DNA of 64,000 nucleotides from Candidatus Bathyarchaeia archaeon (GCA_038897035.1 JAWAXF010000003.1:64-64063), one strand, 5' to 3'; positions 21,056-58,071 are shown, counted from the stretch's first letter. Program-made: numbers and translations. The notes: generated by a model from the sequence alone, not told the origin.

Positions 21056-21085
21056 TTCGTTATTTTTTGCCAAGTGTGTAGAGAA

Positions 21086-22141
21086 ATGAAGAGGGGGAAG
21101 AGATTAACACCGTATTTTGTAAAGAAGCTCGAGCCTATAGAGGTTAGGGTGCCAAAAAAGATATCTGAGCTATTGTCGGAGATGGCTAAAACAGGTTTTC
21201 AGGGGAGGAAGCTTGGCGAGCTTATCGATATTTGGGAGATGATGCTCAAAGACGAGGTGACAATATTTTTCGGCTTTGCTGGATCAATGAGCACGACTGG
21301 CCAGTGGAAAATAATTAATTGGCTCATTGAAAAACGCTTCATAGACGTCATTGTCTCAACCGGCGCAAATATATCGGAGGACATCCTAGAGGCTATGGGC
21401 GGAACATATTGGCAGGGACACTATTTCGTTGACGACGAAGATTTGGCGAGACACAGAATAGATAGATTTTACGACGTGTTCGCCGACGAATATGAGTACG
21501 AAGAAATGGAAAACCTAATAGCTGACTTTATGATGACCTTGAAAGCAGGCTATAGATACTCCTCAGCGGAGTTCCTCCACCTCTTTGGCAAATATCTGTC
21601 AGAGATAGGGGTAAAGAGTATTATAGCGAAAGCTTATGAGAACGATTTGCCAGTCTTCTGCCCAGCTATAGTTGACAGCGCATATGGTATTGCGTATATA
21701 TTGAATAGGCGGAGGAGCAAGGGGGCATTTAGCATAATTGTGGATCAGATGAAGGACTTTGATCAGCTCGTCGATATAAAGAGGAGGTCAAAGGATACTG
21801 GCGTGATATATGTAGGTGGGGGCGTGCCTAAAGACTTCATTCAATTGACGGCCATAGGCGCGAGCATAACCAATGACGGAAGATATAGTCTTCCAGTCCC
21901 ACATAAATATGCAATTCAAATAACAACTGATGCGCCCCATTGGGGAGGCCTATCCGGCTGCACATTTGAGGAGGCTATAAGCTGGGGTAAAGAAAGTAGG
22001 GCTGGGAGAAACGTTCAATGCTACTGTGATGCGACAATAGCTCTCCCAATAATTTCGCATGCGTTAGCTGAAAGGATTAATGAGAGAAAGAATCGGCCAG
22101 ACCTCTCATGGATTTTTCATGAAGTAAGACAAATGATCTAA
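21086..22141 (+). CDS. dys: Deoxyhypusine synthase
   Basis: The segment GFAGSMSTTGQWKIINWLIEKRFIDVIVSTGANISEDILEAMG and the C-terminal GGGVPKDFI...EAISWGK are typical of the DHS family. Confidence 0.85.
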   Translation: MKRGKRLTPYFVKKLEPIEVRVPKKISELLSEMAKTGFQGRKLGELIDIWEMMLKDEVTIFFGFAGSMSTTGQWKIINWLIEKRFIDVIVSTGANISEDILEAMGGTYWQGHYFVDDEDLARHRIDRFYDVFADEYEYEEMENLIADFMMTLKAGYRYSSAEFLHLFGKYLSEIGVKSIIAKAYENDLPVFCPAIVDSAYGIAYILNRRRSKGAFSIIVDQMKDFDQLVDIKRRSKDTGVIYVGGGVPKDFIQLTAIGASITNDGRYSLPVPHKYAIQITTDAPHWGGLSGCTFEEAISWGKESRAGRNVQCYCDATIALPIISHALAERINERKNRPDLSWIFHEVRQMI

Positions 22142-47292: not shown

Positions 47293-48351
47293 TTACGTTG
47301 GATCTCTGTAGCTGTCATAATTTTTTCTTCGCCTTTCTCGCCATCTCGGAATGGCTTCAGGATTTACTATATGCCTAGGTATCCTGCCTCTTAATATTCT
47401 TAGGCAATTTTTTACGGCTAATTTTTCGCCCTCAATTATTGATGTGCTGTTTCGGCCTGCTATGTGGGGTGTTAATATGACGTTTTCCATTTTTAGGAGG
47501 GGGTTGTCTGTTGTTATGGGTTCTTTTTCAACTACGTCTAGGGCGGCGCCGGCTATCATGCCATTTTTTAGGGCGTTTATGAAGGCTTTCTCGTCTATGA
47601 TTGCTCCCCTTGCGGTATTAACTATGTATGCTGTCTTTTTCATTGTGGCTAGCTCTTTGAACCCGATCATGTGGTAGGTCTCCTCTGTTAGGGGGGCGTG
47701 AATTGTGACGAAGTCCGACTCCCTTAGCAAGGTCTCTAGATTTGTTGGTTTTACTCCTATGCGCCTTAATCTTTCTTCTGGGATGTATGGATCGTAGCCT
47801 AATATTCTCACCTGGAAGGGGCGTAGAAGCTTTGCAACCCTGGATCCTATCCTTCCAAGCCCAATTATCCCAACAGTCTTACCAGCTAAAACAATCGTAT
47901 CCACACGCTCATCAAAATACGCGGACGGCCCCTCTTTCGCCATAATCTCTGGAATTATTCTCAATTTTTTAGCCAAGGCAAGAATCAAAGCTACCGTATG
48001 CTCGGCCACGCTTATGATGTTTTCTTTAACGGGAGCATTTGCAATTAATATTCCTAGCTCAGATGCTGCCTTAATGTCAATCTTATCAACACCTATTCCA
48101 CTATTACAAACGCAAATAAGACTTTTCATCGACTTCAAAGCCCTTGCGGTTAACGTCAACCCTGGAGAGCCTAAAATGGCATGCACATCTCTACATCTTC
48201 TAATAATTTCATCTTCAGCATACCTATTTCCTCTACTCACAATTGGGGGTGCTGGTTCCGCGCCAAAGATCAACTCAAATCCCTCATCTCTTAGTGGCTT
48301 ATATATTTCCGGAATATTCATGGGAAAGGCTATGAAGACACGTTTTTGCAT
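47293..48351 (-). CDS. D-isomer-specific 2-hydroxyacid dehydrogenase (phosphoglycerate dehydrogenase-like)
   Basis: Carries the NAD motif GKTVGIIGLGRIGSRVAKLL, then NTARGAIIDEKA, then TPHIAG. Confidence 0.8.
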   Translation of the reverse strand: MQKRVFIAFPMNIPEIYKPLRDEGFELIFGAEPAPPIVSRGNRYAEDEIIRRCRDVHAILGSPGLTLTARALKSMKSLICVCNSGIGVDKIDIKAASELGILIANAPVKENIISVAEHTVALILALAKKLRIIPEIMAKEGPSAYFDERVDTIVLAGKTVGIIGLGRIGSRVAKLLRPFQVRILGYDPYIPEERLRRIGVKPTNLETLLRESDFVTIHAPLTEETYHMIGFKELATMKKTAYIVNTARGAIIDEKAFINALKNGMIAGAALDVVEKEPITTDNPLLKMENVILTPHIAGRNSTSIIEGEKLAVKNCLRILRGRIPRHIVNPEAIPRWRERRRKNYDSYRDPT

Positions 48352-48479
48352 TGAATCATACCTCTCTAAGTAGAGTAATCTTACTAATTATAACTAATTT
48401 ATAAATTTAAGTGAAGACCGGTCAAATAATAATGAAGGGGTATCATTGGAGATTTTTGGTTTAATAGAGTAATACTTTA

Positions 48480-49010
48480 ATGCATGCTGAGAGAATTTAC
48501 TTCCGGATGAAGGAGCTTAAAGTAATTAATGCTAAGTTGCATCTTTTGGGTGATGAGGATATCGAGGCGATAGTTAAGATAGAGATACATCCCGCTGTCA
48601 GAAGATGGCTTCCAGGTTATGTTAGTGATGATTTTAATAGGGAGCTTAGGGAGTATAGAAAATTCTTCCATGATCTCCAGAACAATGAGAGAACTGAGGT
48701 TTTGGTTGCTAAAATTGATGGGCGCGTCGTCGGCTTCCTCGCCCTATGGCGTATGGACGAGTATACGAGAAGTATAGGTGTGAGCGTTCATCCAGAATAT
48801 TGGGGAAGAGGAATCGCAACGGCGCTCATCAAGGAATCCATAGAGATTGCTAGGAAAATGGGTGTTAAGAAAGTTGTGATTGAGACTTTAGCGGAGAATG
48901 GAGCTATGAGACATGTAGCTGAAAAACTTGGCTTTAAATTGGAGTCTATTAGAAAGATTTTTGTAAGCGGGTCTTCTTATAATGAGTATGTATACTCGCT
49001 GCAGCTTTGA
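48480..49010 (+). CDS. GNAT-family N-acetyltransferase
   Basis: The acetyl-CoA motif is VHPEYWGRGIATALIKESIEIARKMG (Q/RxxGxG/A). The start may be the ATG at 48507. Confidence 0.7.
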   Translation: MHAERIYFRMKELKVINAKLHLLGDEDIEAIVKIEIHPAVRRWLPGYVSDDFNRELREYRKFFHDLQNNERTEVLVAKIDGRVVGFLALWRMDEYTRSIGVSVHPEYWGRGIATALIKESIEIARKMGVKKVVIETLAENGAMRHVAEKLGFKLESIRKIFVSGSSYNEYVYSLQL

Positions 49011-49110
49011 TGATCAAAAATATTGATAGAAAGCTTTAAATATCTGGATAGTCGTAGATACACTTTTCTTGTGGCGCCGATGGTGCCACAGGATGCGCGC
49101 GAAATAAAGT

Positions 49111-50223
49111 ATGGGCGAAGACTGGAGGAACATTCTCAAAAATAGTATAACTAGACCAGAACAGATTTTAGAGAGATTTAAGGTCGATATAGAGCCGATT
49201 AAAAAGGTTGCTGAAGTCTATCCAATGTTTGTCTCGAGGTACTATTTTGACCTTATAGAGGAGGTTAATGACCCCATATGGAAGCAGTGTATACCAAGTC
49301 CGCTGGAGCTCCAGGATCTATACGGCTATGAGGATCCATTGAATGAGGAGGGCGATAGTCCGGTACCGGGCTTAGTGCATAGATATCCAGATAGGGTTTT
49401 AATGTGTGTTTCAAATATATGCGCAACGTACTGTAGGTTCTGCACTAGGAAGAGGAGGGTTGGAAAGCCGGTGATAAACTTCTCTGATGAAATCTATTTG
49501 GCGCAAATCAAGTATATTCGAGAGAATCCGCAGATTAGGGATGTCCTCCTTTCTGGTGGAGACCCCTTCATGCTTCCGGATGAAAAGATAGAGTTTCTGC
49601 TGAAGAGTCTCAGGAAGATACCTTATGTTGAGATTCTGAGGATAGGAACTAGAGTTCCCTGCACGCTTCCACAGAGGATCACTCCAAAGCTTTGCCGCAT
49701 GCTTAAGAAGTATCACCCGCTCTACGTAAACGTCCACTTTGAGCACCCACGTGAGATAACTGAGGAGGCTGAGAGGGCATGTGGATTACTTGCGGACGCC
49801 GGCATACCGCTGGGAAACCAGTCCGTCTTACTTAGGGGAGTTAATGATGACCCTGAAACTATGAAGGCTCTATGTCAAAAGCTACTTAAGATCCGCGTTA
49901 AACCATACTATCTATTCCAGATGGACTTGGTGAAGGGGGCCTCCCACTTTAGGACGAGGGTTGAGGTCGGTCTTAAAATAATTGAGTCTCTTATCGGATG
50001 GACCTCAGGGCTAGCTGTGCCGCGCTTCGTTATAGATGCCCCGGGAGGGGGAGGCAAGATACCGCTCCAGCCAAACTATATCATCTCAATAAACGATGAG
50101 GAAGTCATCTTAAGAAATTACGAGGGAAAGATCTTCGTTTACCCGCAGGTGCCAGAGGAGAAAAGCGACGCTGGAATCTTAGCGCCCCTAACAAGGAGAA
50201 GCTCTTGGCAGCATACTAGTTAG
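49111..50223 (+). CDS. kamA: Lysine 2,3-aminomutase family radical SAM enzyme
   Basis: The radical SAM motif is CATYCRFCTRKR, followed by LSGGDPF. Both Asp residues that bind the lysine epsilon-amino group in clostridial LAM appear conserved (FQMDLVKG and VIDAPGGGGKIP). This argues for lysine rather than glutamate as substrate. Confidence 0.85.
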   Translation: MGEDWRNILKNSITRPEQILERFKVDIEPIKKVAEVYPMFVSRYYFDLIEEVNDPIWKQCIPSPLELQDLYGYEDPLNEEGDSPVPGLVHRYPDRVLMCVSNICATYCRFCTRKRRVGKPVINFSDEIYLAQIKYIRENPQIRDVLLSGGDPFMLPDEKIEFLLKSLRKIPYVEILRIGTRVPCTLPQRITPKLCRMLKKYHPLYVNVHFEHPREITEEAERACGLLADAGIPLGNQSVLLRGVNDDPETMKALCQKLLKIRVKPYYLFQMDLVKGASHFRTRVEVGLKIIESLIGWTSGLAVPRFVIDAPGGGGKIPLQPNYIISINDEEVILRNYEGKIFVYPQVPEEKSDAGILAPLTRRSSWQHTS

Positions 50224-50244
50224 GGCCAAGAAGGGCTAACCGCG

Positions 50245-51297
50245 ATGACACTTAGGGTTGGCCTTACATATAACCTTAGGAGAAGGGTGGAAAGCGATAG
50301 TCTGCCAGAGGACTTTTATGTAGAATTCGATGAAGAGGATACTGTTAATGCTATATCTTCGGCCTTGAGGCGGGGCGGATGTAAGGTAATAAGGATTGAG
50401 GCTGATGAGAACGCTTATACTAGGCTGCGCAGGTCCAGACCGGATATAGTCTTCAATATCGCTGAGGGGCTTCGTGGCGAGAGCCGCGAATCACATATCC
50501 CGGCGATGTTGGAGATGCTTGGTATACCATATACTGGCTCAGGCCCCTCAACATTGGCAATGTGCTTAGATAAAGCTTTAACACATAAGGTCTTAAGCGC
50601 CTATGGTGTTCCCTCACCAAAATTCCAGGTCTTTAAGAGGGCTGAAGAGAAGTTAAGTAACGAGTTAGACTTTCCACTTGTGGTTAAACCGCTTTTGGAG
50701 GGCTCGAGTAAGGGAATTAGAAGTAACTCCCTCGTGAAGGATGAGGAGAGCCTTAGAAGGCAAGTTTCATGGATCATTAAGACATATCATCAACCAGCTA
50801 TAGTTGAGGAGTTTATGCCTGGAAGAGAATTTACTGTTGGGCTTATAGGCAATGAGAATCCGGTTGTTCTACCGATTGTCGAGATATGTCTTGATAGGCT
50901 ACCGGGGGGTGCAAGCCCAATATACTCTTATGAGGCAAAGTGGATTTGGGATACGCCGGAGAATACCCTAGAGATATTTAGATGCCCGGCCCCCATCCCC
51001 AAGCAGCTTGAGGAAGAGATAAAGGAAATTGCCATTAAGACTTTTGATGTGCTTGGTTGTAGGGACTTATGCCGCATAGACATGAGGCTGGATGGAGAGG
51101 GGGCACCAAGGGTTTTAGAGGTTAATCCACTGCCGGGGCTAATTCCAGACCCAAATGCCCACTCATGTCTTCCGGAAGCTGCTAGGGCGGCTGGCTTCAC
51201 CTACGATGAATTAATATGCACAATCCTTTGGCAGGCACTAAAGAGATACGGTCTCCATCATCTATTTAAAGGAGAGTCTCTAGTAAAGATACCCTGA
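50245..51297 (+). CDS. ATP-grasp ligase, D-alanine--D-alanine ligase-like, paralog A
   Basis: The Ddl-like layout is: IVFNIAEGLRGESRESHIPAMLEMLGIPYTGSG, then DKALTHKVLSAYGVPSP, then FPLVVKPLLEGSSKGI, then AIVEEFMPGREFTVGLIG, then CRIDMRLDGEGAPRVLEVNPLPGL. Confidence 0.75.
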   Translation: MTLRVGLTYNLRRRVESDSLPEDFYVEFDEEDTVNAISSALRRGGCKVIRIEADENAYTRLRRSRPDIVFNIAEGLRGESRESHIPAMLEMLGIPYTGSGPSTLAMCLDKALTHKVLSAYGVPSPKFQVFKRAEEKLSNELDFPLVVKPLLEGSSKGIRSNSLVKDEESLRRQVSWIIKTYHQPAIVEEFMPGREFTVGLIGNENPVVLPIVEICLDRLPGGASPIYSYEAKWIWDTPENTLEIFRCPAPIPKQLEEEIKEIAIKTFDVLGCRDLCRIDMRLDGEGAPRVLEVNPLPGLIPDPNAHSCLPEAARAAGFTYDELICTILWQALKRYGLHHLFKGESLVKIP

Positions 51298-51321
51298 AGG
51301 GCAAGCAGTCTAACCTATAGC

Positions 51322-52344
51322 CTAGTGTGGTCTCTTATCAGCTCTTGAGAGTGCAAAGTATATTATTCTTTCGATAAATTTCTCAAAGGGTATTTTAGCA
51401 GCCCTTAGTGAGCGCGCAAAACCAGCTTCTGGTGATAGGTCGGGGTTTGGATTAACTTCAAGGACATAAATTATTCCAGTTTCGTCCTGTAGGCGCATAT
51501 CAATCCTGGCGTAATCCCTGCACCCCAGTGCTCTATAGGCCTTAAGCGCGGTCTCCACAACCCTATCTCTTAAATCATTGCTCAATTCCGCTGGGCATAG
51601 AGACTTCGTCCTAGAATATTCATCGCTATCCCTAAGCCACTTTGCTGCATAATCAGCTATTTTTGGCTCCTCCTCAAACTCAAAAATTATCTCTGAGATC
51701 GGTAAGACGATAGGCTCCTCATTGCCTAGAATTGAAACATTAAATTCTCTTCCGCTAATATACTCCTCAACGAGAGCTGGCTGGTTATAAACATCATTTA
51801 TATATTTGACCTGTTTTTCCAGACCTGCAATGTTTTTGACGAAGCTCCGCCGCGATATTCCTATACTGGCGTCCTCCCTTAGGGGCTTAACGATGAGGGG
51901 AAACCTTAACCCCCGTGGGCTCTCATTTTTCTCCATCACTTGATATTTCGGTGTCGGTATGCCGTTGGCTTTAAGAACCGCTTTAGCTAAGCCCTTATCT
52001 TGACATAGTCCAAGGGTTAATGGAGTCGAGCCAGTATATGGTATCCTTAAGATTTCTAGTACGGAGGGAACATGCATTTCCAGGCTGCTCTTGCCCATAA
52101 AGCCCTCAGCCAGGTTCACGATGACGTCTGGTCTATAAACCTTTAGGGCTCTAATAATCTCTTCAATGTCGTCCTTTAGGGGAAACAATTGATAGTGGAG
52201 ACCGAGCTTCGTTAATGCATCTTGGACGGCATTTACTTGATCAAGAATCTCCTCCTCCGCCAGATAGTCTATTTCCTCCCCCCACCTTGGCTTCGCAGGC
52301 AAATTAAATAGTATACCAACCTTAAGCGCCAATTGCCCCGTCAC
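51322..52344 (-). CDS. ATP-grasp ligase, D-alanine--D-alanine ligase-like, paralog B
   Basis: It has the same motif order as paralog A: VIVNLAEGFMGKSSLEMHVPSVLEILRIPYTGS, then FPLIVKPLREDASIGI, then ALVEEYISGREFNVSILG, then ARIDMRLQDETGIIYVLEVNPNPDL. It is convergent with paralog A, with a 24-nt gap. Confidence 0.75.
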   Translation of the reverse strand: MTGQLALKVGILFNLPAKPRWGEEIDYLAEEEILDQVNAVQDALTKLGLHYQLFPLKDDIEEIIRALKVYRPDVIVNLAEGFMGKSSLEMHVPSVLEILRIPYTGSTPLTLGLCQDKGLAKAVLKANGIPTPKYQVMEKNESPRGLRFPLIVKPLREDASIGISRRSFVKNIAGLEKQVKYINDVYNQPALVEEYISGREFNVSILGNEEPIVLPISEIIFEFEEEPKIADYAAKWLRDSDEYSRTKSLCPAELSNDLRDRVVETALKAYRALGCRDYARIDMRLQDETGIIYVLEVNPNPDLSPEAGFARSLRAAKIPFEKFIERIIYFALSRADKRPH

Positions 52345-52497
52345 CTAACTCTAAACTCTACTATCAATACAGCTAACATATAACTTCTCGATAACATCAC
52401 GCTAATGCAGGGCTAAGACTTTATCATTTGATTTGACGCGATTACGGCAAGGAATTGTATTAAATGAAGTGAAGAATCCAGTCCAGCATCTTATTAG

Positions 52498-52966
52498 GTG
52501 GGAATCCCCCTTCTCGCGGCATTCTATCCCAGGGTTGTCTCAGTATTAGATGGGGTTGACGGTGATTTAGCTGAACTCACTTATAGGATCTCGCCTTTCG
52601 GCGGATTTCTGGACGCTATGCTGGATCGCTATGGTGATGCGGCCATCTTGACGGGCATGATATGTTTTTCTCATTGATAGCGAAGGGAACGATATTGCCA
52701 GCATCATCACAGGGCTTGCCGCATTATTTGGTTCGCTGCTCGTAAGTTATAGCGGAGCCCGCGCAAAATCTGACCTAAAATTAACATTTGATAGAGGGTT
52801 CTCCGGTTATGCCGCAAATAGAGATGTCCGCCTCTTCATAATAATGATTGGAGGCTTGCTAAACCAGATCCTCGTGACGCTTGCTATTATCGCAATTTTA
52901 ACAAATCTAAATGTTTTAGCTCGTCTCTGGGATGCTTGGAAAAGTGTTAAGGTAAAGCTGCCTTAG
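52498..52966 (+). pseudogene. CDP-alcohol phosphatidyltransferase family remnant (5'-truncated, frameshifted)
   Basis: LDGVDGDLAELTYRISPFGGFLDAMLDRYGDA matches the family motif DGx2ARx8Gx3Dx3D, with Glu in place of Arg. Only 17 codons precede it, against the 40 or more expected. The frame changes at the T5 run near 52664, after which it reads DSEGNDIASIITGLAALFGSLLVSYSGARAK... Confidence 0.55.
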
Positions 52967-52992
52967 GGATTGTTGTTTGTCGGGATAATCAA

Positions 52993-53274
52993 TTATGGCT
53001 TAATTTCTATTATGATCTTAGATAGGGCTGCCTCGCAAACTTTCCTTATGCCTCTCTTCCCCCTCTTATAGCTCACTCTAATTAATCCGGTCTCCTCAAG
53101 GAGCTGAACCTGCTCACTTACATAAGCCTCGCTTAAACCTAATCTCTCAGCTATTGATGAAACATCTAGACTCTCTTTAGAGAGCAACTGCAGTATTTTT
53201 AAGCTCGTTGATGTTAGAATCTCAGCGATCCTTAAAGCATCCTCACCTCTCACTACAAGCTCATCTGACTGCAA
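52993..53274 (-). CDS. ArsR-family winged-helix transcriptional regulator
   Basis: Carries LRIAEILTSTSLKILQLLSKESLDVSSIAERLGLSEAYVSEQVQLLEETGLIRV. Confidence 0.7.
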   Translation of the reverse strand: MQSDELVVRGEDALRIAEILTSTSLKILQLLSKESLDVSSIAERLGLSEAYVSEQVQLLEETGLIRVSYKRGKRGIRKVCEAALSKIIIEIKP

Positions 53275-53392: not shown

Positions 53393-54865
53393 CTAGCGGA
53401 TCCCGCTGCCCTCGCGGGCGTAAGCGGCGTTCTCCTGAGGTTTATGCTGAGGATGAAACAAAAATGTAGCACGAGCGCTTGAGCATGCCTTTAATAAGCC
53501 CTCAGACTTAAGCTCCCTTATGGTCTCATTAAACTTTTCTATTGTCATCCTGACATCTTCTCTTGTGTGCGCGGTCGATAGAATGAACCTTGGACCCATC
53601 GGATGTAACCCCTATTTATTAAAGCCTTCTCTAAGAGATGCATGGTTCTCCGGCCCTCGCTAAGTTTCCTCCGAAGTTTAATGTAGCTCACGATGTCCGA
53701 GACCTTTAAGTCTTCTGGGCTTACTCCAAAGCCCACATGAACTATTGATGGCGTCGTGCTCCACGCGAGAGTCTCTATCCCGCCGTCCTCGATAACTTCG
53801 TTCAGGCCCCGCTTTAACATATCTCCCTTCCTGTTGATTGCTGGATGAGCTCTCCCCTCAAGTATCATCTTTAGGCATGCATTGCCAGCAGCCGCCGAGA
53901 GTGGATTAGCATTAAACATCCCGTGGTGACTTACACGCCTGGTTTCTCTACGCTCTTCCCTAAACTCTAGGAGGCTCATGTATTCCTCCCCTCCGGCTAT
54001 AGCCCCGCCGGGGTATCCTTCGGAGAGGATCTTGCCGAGCGTTGCCATGTCTGGTATAACGTTGTAGCGCTCCTGAGCCCCGCCCGACGCATCCCTAAAG
54101 CCCGTAACAACCTCATCAAATATTAGGATGACACCATTGTCCCTAGTGACTTCTCTAAGGTTTTTGAGGAAATCCTCTGTGGTTGGTATGATTCCCATGC
54201 GGGCTCCCCCGGGCTCAATTATGACGCATGCTACGTCACCACCCTCAATAGCCTTTTCCACGGACTCTATGTTATTCGGCGGTAGGGCAATTGTGTTTCT
54301 GCATATTTCTGGGGTATGCCGATCGGGTACTCGCCGGCAAGCATAGGCGAATAATTTGGGTTATAGTCAATTACCATGTAATCAAGCCACCCGTGAAAAT
54401 GCGACATAAACTTTATGACCTTTCTCCTCCCGGTATATGCCATTGCTATGCGGATTGCCATCAAATTTGCCTCTGTCCCGGAATTTGTGAACTCAACTAG
54501 GCCCCCATGCGCGCAGGGTACTAGCTGGTAACCTTCTCGGCCCATTCTATTTCAAGCTTGTGTGATGCTCCGTAATGCGTCCCCTTATGTATTTGCCCTA
54601 GGGCGGCTCTAGTGATGGTTGGGTGCGAGTGGCCGAAAATGAGGGCTCCATACCCCATCCAGTAGTCAATATACTCGTTTCCATCGACATCCCACTTCCT
54701 AGACCCCTTGGCCCTAACACAGTATATTGGCATGGGCTCGAAGTACCTTGAATCATGCGTTACGCCCCTGGCGAATACCCTCCTAGCCCTCCTGTAGAGA
54801 TCCATTGACCTTTGATGCTTCTCTATATACTCCACATTCACCCTGCTTAAGGAATCTCCCAACAT
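53393..54865 (-). pseudogene. Class-III PLP aminotransferase (glutamate-1-semialdehyde aminomutase-like) broken into four ORFs
   Basis: The four pieces, in order, are:
- DGNEYIDYWMGYGALIFGHSHP
- FTNSGTEANLMAIRIAMAYTGRRKVIKFMSHFHGW
- ACVIIEPGGARMGIIP...ILIFDEVVTGFR...ATLGKILSEGYPGGAIAG (PLP Lys context)
- ILSTAHTREDVRMTIEKF
Together they make one colinear enzyme with three frame changes, near 54530, 54270 and 53595. Confidence 0.8.
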
Positions 54866-55981: not shown

Positions 55982-57007
55982 GTGCTTGCTGGGGAGTGGC
56001 TCCCCCTAGATGGGGACACTTTACTGACCGAGGATGGCTTCATATTTAACGTGTTTGGCTACGAGCACCCGGAGGACCGAGTCTTCTCTTTCCTCAAGTA
56101 TATCCCCTCGAATTTCAAAGATCTCTTTAATATCCGCCTACTAGAAAGAAGATGGAAGTTCCATGGCATAGAGCTTCTCCGCGCAGATAAACTTTATACG
56201 GCTAACAACTATAAACTGCTCCTAAGAACCTTTAAAGAGAATTTCCCCAGCTACGTTTACTTTTGCCCTTTTAGGGGCAAGGAGGTTATTAGCGTCCCAA
56301 TCAGCCGCATTAAAACGGTTTTTGTCCCGAGATATTGTTTGCAGGCCCTCCTTAAAAAACCAGGTAAGGATCGTCTTCAGGAGATGGCGGTTGACCTTAT
56401 TATGCTTATTTCGGGCGTCTCTAATGTCCCGGTCGAGGATTTCGGGCTACATGGGTCCATAGCCTTGGACATGCATAGCGGCGAGTCCGACATAGATATT
56501 GTCGTCTATGGTGGGAACAATTTTAGGAGGGTTGAAGCCGCCATAAATAGGCTGGCTGGGGAAGGCTTATTTAGGTATGTGTTCAAGAATAGGTTGGATG
56601 CCTCAAGGAAGTATAGGGTTAGATATGGGGATAGAATCTTCATGTACACAGCCGTTAGGAAGCCAGAGGAGATAAACTTCAGGTATGGCCAATATCGCTA
56701 TGTTCCCATAAAACCCGTCAAATTTATGTGTAGGGTTTGGGGTGATGGCGAAGCAATGTTCCGTCCAGCCACTTATGAAATAAAAGATTACTCCCCACTA
56801 GACTCGGACTCAGAACTTCCAGGAGAAATGGTTCCGAGGAGGGTTGTTTCAATGATTGGATGCTACAGGAACGTTGCGAGGAGGGGCGATAGAATCAGAG
56901 TTTCCGGCTTCCTCGAGAGGGTGGAGGACGCTTTAGGGGGAGGAGCATTCTACCAGGTTGTTGTTGGGACAGCTGAGGGCGGGGACGAGCACATTTGGCC
57001 CCTGTGA
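55982..57007 (+). CDS. Pol-beta-superfamily nucleotidyltransferase-domain protein, tandem paralog 1 (function unknown)
   Basis: The NTase core is [24 protein letters not shown] (hG[GS]x9-13DhD). The N-terminal module is [34 protein letters not shown]. The C-terminal tail is beta-rich ([11 protein letters not shown]). The start is a GTG. Confidence 0.6.
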
Positions 57008-58071
57008 AGCTCAGGGATCGTGATGCCATCGTTACACCAAAGGGTCTTATTTTCAGGGTTCTAGGCTACACGCATCCGCCGGAGGGCTACATATGTGATA
57101 TCGAGTACGCCCCCTCAGAAATTTACCAATCAAGCAACCCAAAGGCATTTAGAAGCGATGGAAAAAGAATCTTCTACAAGTTTTATGGAGATGAGGGGTG
57201 GAGGTTCATACTGGAGAGATACCCCCAGTATATCATGGATTATAGGCCAGCGGGAAGAAAGGTTATCGGTGTGGGGTACGAGGCTATTAGGGAGGTTAGG
57301 AGACCGGGAGAGAGACTCAAGGATCTTGTCGAGCTGAGCCCGGCTGATGAATTAGTCCACTCCCTACAAAGAGTCCTCGCTCTCGTTGGGGATCAAGGGC
57401 TCTCGCCGAAAGACTTCGGCGTATTTGGCTCAATTCTTCACGGCTTTCATAATCCTAAGCTCTCTGACCTCGACATAATAGTTTATGACAAAGAGTGCCT
57501 AGAGAAGCTTCGCGGTATATTAAGCGATTTATATGGTTGGGGGGACTCCCCACTAACAAACGAGTTTTCGGATGGGAGCCCAATCAGGGGTAAGGTCTGG
57601 CGCTTCGAGAACATAAGCCCAAAGGAGTTTCTCTGGCACCAGCGGCGGAAGCTAATCTATGCGGTTTTTCACGACGATCTCTCTGGGCGGAGAATAAAGA
57701 CAGAGTTTGAGCCAGTTAAGGCATGGCATGAAATATCAGATGAATATCGGGCCACTCTCGGCATACGCTGGATAGGGTGGATCAAGGCTATCCTCAGAAT
57801 CACCGATGATAGAGAGGGGCCATTCATGCCCTCAATATACTATGTTGAACCAATCGAGATAATTGAGGGACCTAAATGCGAGAGCGTTCTGAGGGTTATT
57901 TCATATCTCGAGGAGTTTAGGATGCAGTGCTGGAGGGATGAAATAGTCTATGCGGAGGGAAACCTAGAGGAGGTGGAGACGAGAGAGGGGAGATTCCACC
58001 AAATAACGCTAACCTATGGGCCGCGCTACTATAGGCAGACCCTCAAGGTCGTTAAGCCGATAGGTGGTTAA
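56995..58071 (+). CDS. Pol-beta-superfamily nucleotidyltransferase-domain protein, tandem paralog 2 (function unknown)
   Basis: The NTase core is [25 protein letters not shown]. The N-terminal module [34 protein letters not shown] is colinear with paralog 1. It overlaps paralog 1 by 13 nt. Confidence 0.6.

Follow-up and report, generated by a model that had tools for sequence, protein, structure and literature searches.

Four adjacent genes of a Bathyarchaeia archaeon, encoding a lysine 2,3-aminomutase (KamA), two Ddl-fold ATP-grasp ligases (AG1 and AG2) and a GNAT acetyltransferase, more probably than not constitute a single biosynthetic pathway (we put the probability at about 0.6), in which beta-lysine is the building block for two sequential ligations and an N-acetylation. 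The genes lie in a window of 64,000 nucleotides from a Bathyarchaeia MAG (Table 1). Their arrangement is far beyond chance: in 60 of 82 loci from other species these genes are likewise linked, and they also exist as fusion proteins. The system is widespread yet uncharacterised, and it points to an unknown beta-lysine-containing compound. We searched family models and the literature and found neither a curated model nor a paper on the four-gene system, in agreement with the original prediction, whose author knew of no characterised pathway of this composition.

Table 1. Features of the KamA–ligase locus, with positions counted from the first nucleotide of the window
Feature	Coordinates	Strand	Basis or context
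GNAT (GNAT1), 176 aa	48480..49010	+	Pfam Acetyltransf_1 4e-21, Acetyltransf_3 1.4e-19
KamA, lysine 2,3-aminomutase, short form, 370 aa	49111..50223	+	Pfam Radical_SAM + LAM_C
AG1, Ddl-fold ATP-grasp ligase, 350 aa	50245..51297	+	Dala_Dala_lig_C 1e-38
AG2, second Ddl-fold ATP-grasp ligase, 340 aa, GTG start	51322..52344	-	Dala_Dala_lig_C 1e-35
AT-rich intergenic region, 128 nt	48352..48479	.	between divergent 2-hydroxyacid dehydrogenase gene and GNAT

The gene set, coordinates and strands given by the original prediction, which was made from the sequence alone, held in every detail, as did its gaps: 100 nt between GNAT and KamA, 21 nt between KamA and AG1, and 24 nt between the stop codons of the convergent AG1 and AG2. 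The intergenic region is presumed to contain the promoter of the GNAT-KamA-AG1 unit; this is inferred only, without data on promoter function, and the region has no Rfam match. PADLOC defence-system models gave 0 matches to the four proteins.

KamA is 55% identical (1e-120) to the lysine 2,3-aminomutase (LAM) of Clostridium subterminale (PDB 2a5h). Aligned to 2a5h, it has both of the aspartates that mark lysine specificity, D293 in ‘FQMDL’ and D330 in ‘FVIDAPGGGGK’ (C. subterminale numbering), and it keeps C125/C129/C132, R134 and K337 as well. From the 2a5h literature, Lys337 of LAM is known to bind PLP, and Arg134 to contact the substrate carboxylate. The radical-SAM motif, CxxxCxxC, reads CATYCRFC in KamA, aligned to CSMYCRHC in LAM; this motif, R134, the GGGGK sequence (K337) and both aspartates are present in 50/50 cluster-linked KamA homologs. 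The claim that kamA retains both aspartates, with beta-lysine the likely product, was therefore upheld by the alignment and the homologs, and the case that would have refuted it, a different substrate signature on careful alignment, was not borne out. What is missing is the structural Zn site of clostridial LAM: C268 has become D, the Cys-rich tail is lacking, and just one of the 50 linked homologs has at least three Cys in its C-terminal tail. We regard this loss as the mark of a short-form KamA subgroup and not as a catalytic feature. Among NCBIfam models, KamA exceeds the cutoff of the KamA subfamily TIGR00238 (297 bits; cutoff 199), and falls under that of the AblA equivalog (479 bits; cutoff 525) because about 54 C-terminal profile positions are missing. 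By score, it is closest to LAM/AblA. Two other identities do not fit by NCBIfam cutoffs: EpmB (250 bits; equivalog cutoff 369) and glutamate 2,3-aminomutase (441 bits; cutoff 650), the latter also because both aspartates are kept. Glutamate 2,3-aminomutase has non-acidic residues (Lys/Asn) at these two positions.

Linkage of KamA to the ligase pair extends over more than 20 named lineages in both domains, the median distance from KamA to the AG block being 503 nt in the 60 loci (of 82) that have KamA. Of the 82 loci, 74 retain AG1 together with AG2, the flanks of the cassette differ completely between lineages, and in three loci (L001, L047 and L088) stop and start codons overlap, indicating translational coupling. 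These loci come mostly from MAGs, and ORF calling in them was crude. Conservation of the neighbourhood, the check proposed for the original prediction, is thus seen for KamA and the AG pair; the GNAT is less constant. Ten complete loci are without KamA, six of them from Deltaproteobacteria/Thermodesulfobacteriota, and a Promethearchaeum locus also lacks it. No residue separates the ligases of KamA-less loci from those of KamA-linked ones; beta-lysine, therefore, is perhaps not obligatory, or else those genomes carry a KamA gene at another site. The loci show no conserved transporter, carrier protein or riboswitch; none of the small ORFs inspected there resembles LysW, and no gene for a small target or carrier is conserved. 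In eight Ignavibacteriota/Bacteroidota loci the gene after KamA encodes an M24 peptidase, an S51 (cyanophycinase-family) peptidase occurs two genes downstream in a single locus (L001), and in DPANN clusters a PLP decarboxylase and PanD adjoin KamA. The distribution is not skewed towards saline or hot environments, and this makes a pure osmolyte role less convincing.

Fused genes found in nature link up as a chain, KamA::AG1, AG1::AG2 and AG2::GNAT, that joins all four activities in a single pathway. Of 120 listed 90%-identity clusters, most are KamA::AG1, with hosts among the Thermoplasmatota, Methanocellales, Woesearchaeota, Nanoarchaeota, Spirochaetales and Omnitrophota. AG2::GNAT, for its part, accounts for most of 120 listed clusters, from hosts that include Methanothrix, Promethearchaeum syntrophicum and Lokiarchaeum ossiferum. 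(Promethearchaeum and Lokiarchaeum are cultured Asgard archaea.) The ligase half is of the AG1 type in the KamA fusions and of the AG2 type in the GNAT fusions. AG1::AG2 fusions exist as well, and double-domain proteins number about 43 among the best 150 family representatives. In one Spirochaetales locus KamA::AG1 stands alone, which suggests that what KamA makes passes straight to AG1. The fusions support, and go further than, the original reading of the locus as a beta-lysine ligation pathway.

AG1 and AG2 are paralogs, 42% identical, and represent two ancient clades (71 and 59 sequences, respectively), one window protein falling in each. The ATP/Mg residues of DdlB (K97, K144, E180, E187, K215, R255, D257, E270 and N272) are 95–100% conserved in both clades. 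A model of AG1 (AF2, pLDDT 89.6) has Ddl enzymes for all of its top 50 Foldseek matches (TM 0.74/0.84). Retention of the ATP/Mg and phosphate-handling residues implies an acyl-phosphate mechanism, an inference from sequence and fold. The prediction of a Ddl-like ATP-grasp pair, including a divergent, convergently oriented paralog, thus held (Pfam and percent identity). Against the NCBIfam Ddl models NF002378 and TIGR01205 (cutoffs 243 and 246 bits), AG1 scores 209 and 172 bits, and AG2, 169 and 156 bits. Both are under every curated Ddl, VanA and D-Ala-D-Ser cutoff, and Ignavibacterium homologs are likewise under the Ddl cutoffs. RimK/LysX families match merely at 1e-4, PylC is absent from the AG1 sequence matches in the PDB at 1e-3, and no primer-binding or oligomerisation domain is detectable with Pfam.

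The substrate-side residues are altered. The N-terminal GGxSxE (E15) motif is missing; nothing aligns to DdlB ahead of residue 25, and a family-specific insertion stands in place of the E15 region. In both clades H63 of DdlB is replaced by E, Y216 by W, G252 by D and M259 by R, and the replacements at H63, G252 and M259 are invariant across the family. AG1-clade proteins are marked by E27-x-D29-xxx-T33 and R81, and AG1 retains S150, G276 and S281, the residues that, in DdlB structures, hold the carboxylate of the nucleophile. In AG2, G149-S150 is replaced by D-A, G276 by D, and S281-L282 by A-G. Its acidic substitutions, D158 and D302, sit where Ddl binds the nucleophile, and its second-substrate pocket is inferred to be differently charged. 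No mur-type gene family recurs at the AG loci by ORF clustering; the conserved neighbours are KamA and GNAT. The original prediction would have been refuted had the ATP-grasp genes been cell-wall or housekeeping ligases without linkage to kamA. This was not borne out: the scores (209/169 bits against 243), the absent GGxSxE motif, the changes at H63, Y216 and M259, the archaeal host, and linkage to kamA in both domains show that they are not cell-wall Ddl.

The GNAT is the least conserved partner of the cassette. GNAT1 exceeds the Pfam Acetyltransf_1 gathering cutoff (75.9 bits; cutoff 20.7), all of its NCBIfam equivalog matches are under cutoff, and its nearest PDB entries are 3f8k and SpeG spermidine acetyltransferases. 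The GNATs of these loci give weak RimI/RimJ-type matches in NCBIfam, and the AblB family is not among the NCBIfam matches of either the window protein or the Ignavibacterium GNAT (157 aa); AblB itself is about 270 aa long. GNAT1 is RimI/RimJ/SpeG-like, then, and not AblB-type, and the predicted absence of an ablB-type partner held. Of 11 distinct related archaeal loci, 8 have a GNAT1 ortholog beside the cassette (about 290 bits on the orthologs' own HMM); in bacteria, about 56 loci have a small GNAT after AG2. In different lineages the slot holds three non-orthologous, barely related GNAT types, and in three Bathyarchaeia loci there is no GNAT near the cassette.

A variant context occurs in 9–11 Deltaproteobacteria/Thermodesulfobacteriota loci, in which the genes immediately upstream of AG1-AG2-GNAT are DHS-like, agmatinase-like and pyruvoyl-ADC. 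The Asgard archaeon P. syntrophicum has these same DS and PvlArgDC neighbours. In the Deltaproteobacteria and Promethearchaeum, homospermidine-synthesis genes thus replace KamA as the neighbour; SpeY/SpeB/ADC clusters of this kind make homospermidine (PMC13625781). In the window, DHS is 27 kb away from the cassette.

The case for one pathway rests on the linkage, the differing flanks, retention of the AG pair, the position of GNAT after AG2, and the fusion chain. The first step is well supported: L-lysine is converted by KamA into beta-lysine (3,6-diaminohexanoate) through radical-SAM/PLP chemistry. Everything after this is inference from context. AG1 would take beta-lysine directly from KamA, as fusion and translational coupling suggest, and form the first amide bond via an acyl-phosphate; AG2 would extend the AG1 product by a second amide bond; and GNAT would cap a free amine using acetyl-CoA. 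The order of steps is read off the order of the fusions, which is suggestive but not proof, and the co-substrates, the nitrogen or carboxylate of beta-lysine used, and the stereochemistry are unknown. No product has been observed. Its most likely form would be a small, soluble, N-acetylated di- or tri-amide containing beta-lysine, peptide- or polyamine-like. Such a cationic or zwitterionic metabolite may remain cytoplasmic, acting as a compatible solute or polyamine surrogate, although its role and structure are unknown. A small molecule is favoured over export or a protein target by the absence of a conserved transporter, carrier or riboswitch and by the M24/S51 peptidases nearby. A cationic substrate is suggested, again by inference, by the E, D and R at positions 63, 252 and 259, by the E-x-D motif of AG1, and by the spermidine-acetyltransferase relatives of the GNAT. 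The product options first offered (a dipeptide, an oligomer, a solute or a modification) are not supported, the product being still unknown.

Parts of this scheme have counterparts in known systems. AblA/AblB, which makes N-epsilon-acetyl-beta-lysine in methanogens, green sulfur bacteria and Bacillus (YodP/KamA), likewise combines a LAM-type aminomutase, with both specificity aspartates, and a GNAT, and the output here, too, would probably be a cytoplasmic small molecule. Here, by contrast, two ATP-grasp ligases are integral, and fused to KamA and GNAT; the GNAT is about 160–180 aa without an AblB match, and KamA is short and under the AblA cutoff. Ddl/VanA enzymes share the three-domain ATP-grasp fold and all ATP/Mg and phosphate-handling residues; the AG ligases differ in scores, in the lost E15 motif and in substrate residues, and they occur in wall-less archaea, linked to KamA rather than to mur genes. 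In pyrrolysine synthesis, PylB rearranges lysine by radical-SAM chemistry to a diamino acid, and PylC, an ATP-grasp enzyme, then forms an amide. The logic is the same, but PylB is no KamA-family PLP aminomutase, and our cassette lacks PylD and has a second ligase and a GNAT. Ngg is a bifunctional GNAT and ATP-grasp enzyme for the osmolyte N-acetylglutaminylglutamine amide. As an acetyltransferase–ligase fusion yielding an N-acetylated dipeptide solute it parallels AG2::GNAT; its domain order and ATP-grasp subfamily are different, however, and it involves no beta-amino acid, aminomutase or second ligase. In EpmB/EpmA, finally, a KamA-family aminomutase likewise provides the beta-lysine for a dedicated ligase, but EpmA is a LysRS paralog whose target is a protein lysine of EF-P, whereas KamA here is LAM-like.

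The alternative that survives best, though we consider it unlikely, is amine acylation. The AG pair would not activate the carboxylate of beta-lysine but acylate a primary amine of a 1,4-diaminobutane-type motif, with beta-lysine (N3 and N6 are four carbons apart) and putrescine/homospermidine as alternative acceptors. The amine would come from KamA or from homospermidine genes, giving a polyamine analogue that is amino-acylated or acetylated. In its favour are the homospermidine-type variant loci, including P. syntrophicum, and the known product of such clusters (PMC13625781), the DPANN decarboxylase and PanD genes, the lack of any specificity residue that differs between KamA-linked and polyamine-linked ligases, the acidic D158 and D302 of AG2, and the SpeG-like GNAT. 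Against it, AG1 keeps the nucleophile-carboxylate residues (roles as in the DdlB structures), the polyamine genes might be neighbours by synteny or co-transfer, and the window DHS is remote. It overlaps the one-pathway reading and does not exclude it.

Less likely still is a cyanophycin-like or poly-beta-lysine polymer, for storage or as a polycation, made by AG1 and AG2 in alternation and capped or primed by GNAT. There are two distinct ligases, and cyanophycin synthetase has two active sites; double-domain AG::AG proteins are frequent, and S51 and M24 peptidases occur nearby. However, both sequence and fold place the ligases nearest to Ddl enzymes, which form dipeptides and are not polymerases, the S51 gene is in one locus only, primer-binding and oligomerisation domains were undetected, and KamA::AG1 can stand alone. 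Slightly more doubtful again is protein modification, with beta-lysine or a beta-lysine tail placed on a translation factor or ribosomal protein, as in EF-P beta-lysylation or by RimK. KamA paralogs do feed EF-P beta-lysylation, DHS, the IF5A-modifying enzyme, neighbours the cassette in two distant lineages, and the GNATs have weak RimI/RimJ-type matches. But KamA fails the EpmB cutoff and is nearest to LAM/AblA, the ligases are Ddl-like with only marginal RimK/LysX similarity, no conserved target or carrier gene or LysW-like small ORF was seen, and the DHS-like neighbours fit a small-molecule homospermidine pathway. Two unrelated functions, KamA and GNAT making N-epsilon-acetyl-beta-lysine in the known AblA/AblB manner (the window GNAT is immediately upstream of KamA) beside accidentally adjacent housekeeping or cell-envelope ligases, are largely excluded by the archaeal host, the missing AblB match, the failed Ddl cutoffs and altered substrate residues, linkage over more than 20 lineages and, above all, fusions that join KamA to AG1 and GNAT to AG2, not KamA to GNAT.

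The original prediction for this region named a lysine-2,3-aminomutase gene with two Ddl-like ATP-grasp ligase genes and a GNAT gene, and its gene content and arrangement held exactly (ORFs, coordinates and Pfam). In the order GNAT (acetyltransferase), KamA (lysine 2,3-aminomutase-type protein), AG1 and AG2 (the ligases), the genes are separated by 100, 21 and 24 nt, calculated from the coordinates. AG1 and AG2 are convergent, and their products are 42% identical.

Positions of the cassette, of neighbouring features and of features in homologous loci from other genomes (L numbers)
Feature	Sequence	Position	Strand	Remarks
Deoxyhypusine synthase (DHS)	window	21074-22141	+	Pfam DS, 8e-94
D-2-hydroxyacid dehydrogenase	window	47293-48351	-	divergent from cassette
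GNAT	window	48480-49010	+	176 aa; Pfam family confirmed
KamA	window	49111-50223	+	370 aa; Pfam family confirmed
AG1, ATP-grasp ligase	window	50245-51297	+	350 aa; Pfam family confirmed
AG2, ligase paralogous to AG1	window	51322-52344	-	340 aa; GTG start; Pfam family confirmed
Stretch upstream of AG2	window	52345-52992		648 nt; no ORF >=60 aa, no Rfam match
Small ArsR-type HTH gene	window	52993-53274	-	
Class-III aminotransferase (Pfam Aminotran_3), broken	window	53545-54865	-	three successive ORFs
Aminotran_3, first ORF	window	54521-54865	-	profile positions 7-78
Aminotran_3, second ORF	window	54267-54545	-	profile positions 86-135
Aminotran_3, third ORF	window	53545-54261	-	profile positions 187-331
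Tandem overlapping ORFs	window	55982-58071	+	341 and 358 aa
S51 (cyanophycinase/dipeptidase E family) peptidase	L001	11855-12559		two genes downstream of AG2
Polyamine-linked locus	L013	6168-11719		Deltaproteobacteria
M24 metallopeptidase	L045	11956-13164		directly after KamA
Extended DPANN cluster	L075	6612-15482		includes PanD
Extended DPANN cluster	L079	7887-16460		four AG copies
Extended DPANN cluster	L084	1115-8534		
Histone-deacetylase/acetylpolyamine-amidohydrolase-like gene	L081	11054-12124	-	Chloroflexia MAG; adjoins cluster

The strongest evidence that beta-lysine passes directly to AG1, and that the four activities belong to one pathway, comes from natural gene fusions, and we infer from them that both statements are likely true. 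In one Thermoplasmatales locus (L046), KamA is joined to a ligase in a protein of 738 aa, and a ligase to a GNAT in one of 526 aa. Neither arose by accident of assembly, as their recurrence in the databases shows: KamA::Dala_Dala_lig_C proteins of 680-880 aa make up most of 120 listed 90%-identity clusters (Thermoplasmatota, Methanocellales, Woesearchaeota, Nanoarchaeota, Spirochaetales and Omnitrophota), and ligase::GNAT proteins of ~505-556 aa make up most of the 120 listed in a second search, including those of Methanothrix, Promethearchaeum syntrophicum and Lokiarchaeum ossiferum. By clade-specific HMMs, the ligase fused to KamA is of the AG1 type, by 110-150 bits, and the ligase fused to GNAT is of the AG2 type, by 80-100 bits. 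AG1::AG2 fusions also occur, and about 43 of the 150 best representatives of the family contain two ligases. The resulting chain, KamA::AG1, AG1::AG2, AG2::GNAT, is the gene order of Methanothrix, in which stops and starts overlap. One Spirochaetales locus has KamA::AG1 alone.

The linkage extends well beyond fused genes. Scanning one genome per species with the AG1/AG2 alignment as query yielded 80 loci, and the window proteins were mapped on these and on further loci, 82 in total. Of the 82, 74 have the AG1-AG2 pair and 60 have KamA, whose median distance from the ligase block is 503 nt; 12 further loci are truncated, and 10 are complete and without KamA. The cluster occurs in archaea (Bathyarchaeia, Nezhaarchaeales, Thermoproteota, Thermoplasmatales, Methanosarcinales, a Euryarchaeota MAG and four DPANN groups) and in bacteria (Ignavibacteriota, Bacteroidota, Kryptonia, Gemmatimonadota, Aminicenantes, Chloroflexi, Planctomycetia, Nitrospinota and Auribacterota). 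Its flanks differ wholly from lineage to lineage, and so the cassette itself is the conserved unit. Gene order varies: AG1>AG2>GNAT>KamA in most bacteria; KamA>AG1>AG2 in Chloroflexi, Thermoplasmatales and Methanothrix; and the window order, GNAT>KamA>AG1 with inverted AG2, in 12 of 12 loci from Bathyarchaeia, Nezhaarchaeales and Thermoproteota. A neighbour-joining tree rooted on DdlB separates an AG1 clade (n=71) from an AG2 clade (n=59), each with archaeal and bacterial members. Mirror-tree correlations (AG1-AG2, 0.84; AG1-KamA, 0.73; AG2-KamA, 0.77) show co-inheritance, but a species phylogeny common to all would give the same values, and we place little weight on them. Most of the loci come from MAGs, and ORF calling in them was crude.

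The linkage of kamA, two ATP-grasp genes and a GNAT gene, for which a conservation test across archaea and bacteria had been suggested, thus held, with the qualification that the GNAT slot is not orthologous. The ~500-nt gap in bacterial loci contains a ~160-aa GNAT (Pfam), and an HMM for this protein finds it directly after AG2 in about 56 loci; its sole close solved relative is a structural-genomics entry, 2r7h. The Bathyarchaeia GNAT forms a separate subfamily (about 290 bits with its own HMM, about 20 with the bacterial one), and a third type is found in the fusion proteins. The slot is therefore filled by a GNAT in each case, though the GNATs are not orthologous.

KamA aligns with lysine 2,3-aminomutase of Clostridium subterminale (2a5h) over 344 residues (E = 1e-120, 55% identity). 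The claim that it keeps both aspartates associated with lysine specificity held on this alignment: the radical-SAM cysteines, R134, the PLP lysine, D293 and D330 are all retained, as they are in 50 of 50 aligned cluster-linked homologs. The window protein is a short form, in which a Zn-site cysteine is substituted and the Cys-rich C-terminal tail is missing, and for this reason it passes the NCBIfam KamA subfamily cutoff (297 against 199) and misses the AblA equivalog cutoff (479 against 525). It falls far under the cutoffs for glutamate-aminomutase, arginine-aminomutase and EpmB. Beta-lysine is therefore the expected product, an inference from residue conservation; the stereochemistry cannot be read from sequence. 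Database searches also returned KamA-family proteins of 516 aa (P0233-P0237; Halobacteriota, Syntrophoarchaeum and Methanomicrobia) with a second, C-terminal copy of the latter half of the KamA domain, from which the GGGGK PLP motif is apparently missing.

AG1 and AG2 both adopt the fold of Ddl. AG1 matches E. coli DdlB at 5e-32, and its AlphaFold model (pLDDT 89.6, pTM 0.90), a prediction, has Ddl structures for all of its top 50 PDB matches (TM 0.74/0.84, 28-29% identity). We reject Ddl identity for either protein: with 209 and 169 bits they miss the Ddl subfamily cutoff of 243 and fall far under every equivalog cutoff, and their substrate region is altered. The Ignavibacterium homologs are likewise under the Ddl cutoffs. 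The prediction would have failed had these been bona fide cell-wall or housekeeping ligases without linkage to kamA, and scores, residues and linkage all came out against this. When 130 family members were aligned with DdlB, the ATP, Mg and phosphate residues proved each 95-100% conserved in both AG1 and AG2, and because of this both paralogs are likely, judging from sequence alone, to be active acyl-phosphate ligases. The GGxSxE (E15) segment at the N-terminus is replaced by a family-specific insertion, the low-confidence portion of the AG1 model. Family-wide substitutions (DdlB numbering) are H63 to an invariant Glu, Y216 to Trp, G252 to Asp and M259 to Arg. The AG1 clade keeps S150, G276 and S281 and adds R81 and a conserved E27-x-D29-xxx-T33 motif; in the AG2 clade G149-S150 become D-A, G276 becomes D, S281-L282 become A-G, and R311 is gained. 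In DdlB structures these positions make up the two D-Ala sites, and it can safely be concluded that the two pockets differ from each other, do not accommodate D-Ala and are more highly charged. Comparison of KamA-linked with polyamine-linked ligases found no distinguishing residue in AG1 and a single conservative Y/F change in AG2, and so could not show which ligase uses beta-lysine. At E <= 1e-30, AG1 matches 1,760 clusters of 50% identity, which makes the family a large one, and NCBIfam has no model naming AG1, AG2 or the small GNAT. Stand-alone AG1-like genes in Bacillota, Chlorobiales and a Gammaproteobacterium lie in housekeeping contexts and offer no functional clue.

Other contexts involve polyamine genes. 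In Deltaproteobacteria and Thermodesulfobacteriota, genes homologous to those for DHS and agmatinase, together with one for pyruvoyl arginine decarboxylase (ADC), precede the AG1-AG2-GNAT block, and a SAM methyltransferase gene follows it. In the Deltaproteobacteria loci L013-L040 the DHS is SpeY-like, the GNAT is GNAT2, a RimI-like GNAT comes after the methyltransferase, and KamA was not found within 7-8 kb. SpeY/SpeB/ADC clusters of this kind make homospermidine from agmatine, according to a 2026 paper (PMC13625781) in which the ligases go unmentioned. In P. syntrophicum, deoxyhypusine synthase and pyruvoyl arginine decarboxylase genes lie 2-4 kb from AG1>AG2::GNAT. A DHS gene is also present in the window, with 27 kb between it and the cassette; in Deltaproteobacteria and Promethearchaeum, DHS homologs adjoin AG1-AG2-GNAT. 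In DPANN clusters KamA is accompanied by PanD, a PLP decarboxylase of the Orn/Arg/DAP type, an additional ATP-grasp enzyme and an unknown protein that is PP-loop-like. The three extended examples in the table each have the AG pair, a ~440-aa unknown protein with a PP-loop-like SFGKDS motif, an ATP-grasp_4 enzyme, the decarboxylase and KamA, with PanD in L075 only. From context, we infer that the module belongs to aliphatic-amine and beta-amino-acid chemistry; the rationale, an inference only, is that the N3-to-N6 segment of beta-lysine is the putrescine skeleton. The HDAC-like deacetylase gene, present in L081 and no other locus, was dropped as pathway evidence.

In the pathway we propose, KamA converts L-lysine to beta-lysine, a step well supported by residue conservation, and, on the basis of fusions, coupling and gene order, AG1 would form a first amide bond, AG2 a second, and GNAT would N-acetylate. 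No product is known. We put the chance of this pathway, with a small amide product, at slightly better than one in two. A small cytoplasmic molecule is favoured because no conserved exporter, carrier protein or riboswitch was found, because the nearest enzymology is dipeptide-forming, and because M24 peptidases occur in some lineages and an S51 peptidase in one locus (L001). In loci of Methanothrix, Promethearchaeum and Spirochaetales, the small ORFs beside the cluster show no resemblance to the carrier LysW, and Rfam searches of the window between 44 and 56 kb (E <= 0.1) and of 8 loci from bacteria and archaea were negative. The M24 gene directly follows KamA in L045 and seven other Ignavibacteriota/Bacteroidota loci; the M24 and S51 peptidases might be product turnover enzymes.

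A bolder reading, which we hold more tentatively and would not bet on, is that the four proteins make an undescribed class of primary metabolite, an acetylated beta-lysine pseudo-peptide or polyamine analogue, within the physiology of homospermidine, which would occur in over 20 lineages, among them cultured Asgard archaea, Methanothrix, DPANN and Ignavibacteria, and that AG1 and AG2 found new Ddl-fold substrate classes. Rivals to the proposed pathway are direct acylation of polyamine-type amines by the ligases and synthesis of a cyanophycin-like polymer, both unlikely, and modification of a protein, which is very unlikely. That the genes serve two unrelated functions is essentially ruled out by the fusion pattern.

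The cassette would work like AblA/AblB with two extra ligations; it shares with PylB/PylC the logic of a radical-SAM lysine mutase followed by an ATP-grasp ligase, and with Ngg, the NAGGN osmolyte synthase, a GNAT-ATP-grasp architecture. It belongs to none of these systems, nor do its proteins qualify as Ddl, AblB, EpmB or glutamate aminomutase. The full-text literature searched contains no description of KamA, two AG ligases and GNAT in combination, although the search did not cover the likeliest earlier computational mention, a 2009 amidoligase survey (Iyer et al., PMC3268129). The superfamilies are familiar; the combination probably lacks a characterised counterpart, and we found no curated model or paper for it.

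We consider the cassette of above-average interest because it is widespread, mis-annotated and testable in cultured organisms. It spans both domains, including ecologically dominant and poorly understood groups (Bathyarchaeia, Asgard archaea, DPANN, Methanothrix, Ignavibacteriota, Gemmatimonadota and Aminicenantes), and its current labels, 'D-alanine--D-alanine ligase' and 'KamA family radical SAM protein', can lead metabolic reconstructions astray, for example into crediting archaea with murein synthesis or lysine fermentation. Were the product identified, core microbial biochemistry would gain a new beta-amino-acid metabolite and a drug-target fold new specificities, and beta-lysine might prove to be linked with polyamine physiology. 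The hypothesis can be tested directly, since some hosts are in culture and the fusion proteins occur in nature.

The four proteins gave zero PADLOC matches to anti-phage defence systems, and that candidate was rejected. Sigma-70 and terminator scans gave background levels only and are uninformative, the host being an archaeon. The neighbouring D-2-hydroxyacid dehydrogenase matches VanH below cutoff (161 bits against 540), and a van-type cluster formed by this gene and the Ddl-like genes was rejected, since their adjacency is not conserved in related loci or other lineages. The stretch upstream of AG2 extends to the ArsR-type HTH gene. Beyond that gene, the broken Aminotran_3 gene could be a pseudogene or the result of assembly frameshifts. 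The tandem overlapping ORFs further downstream look paralogous, with a weak nucleotidyltransferase-domain match in the first ORF only.
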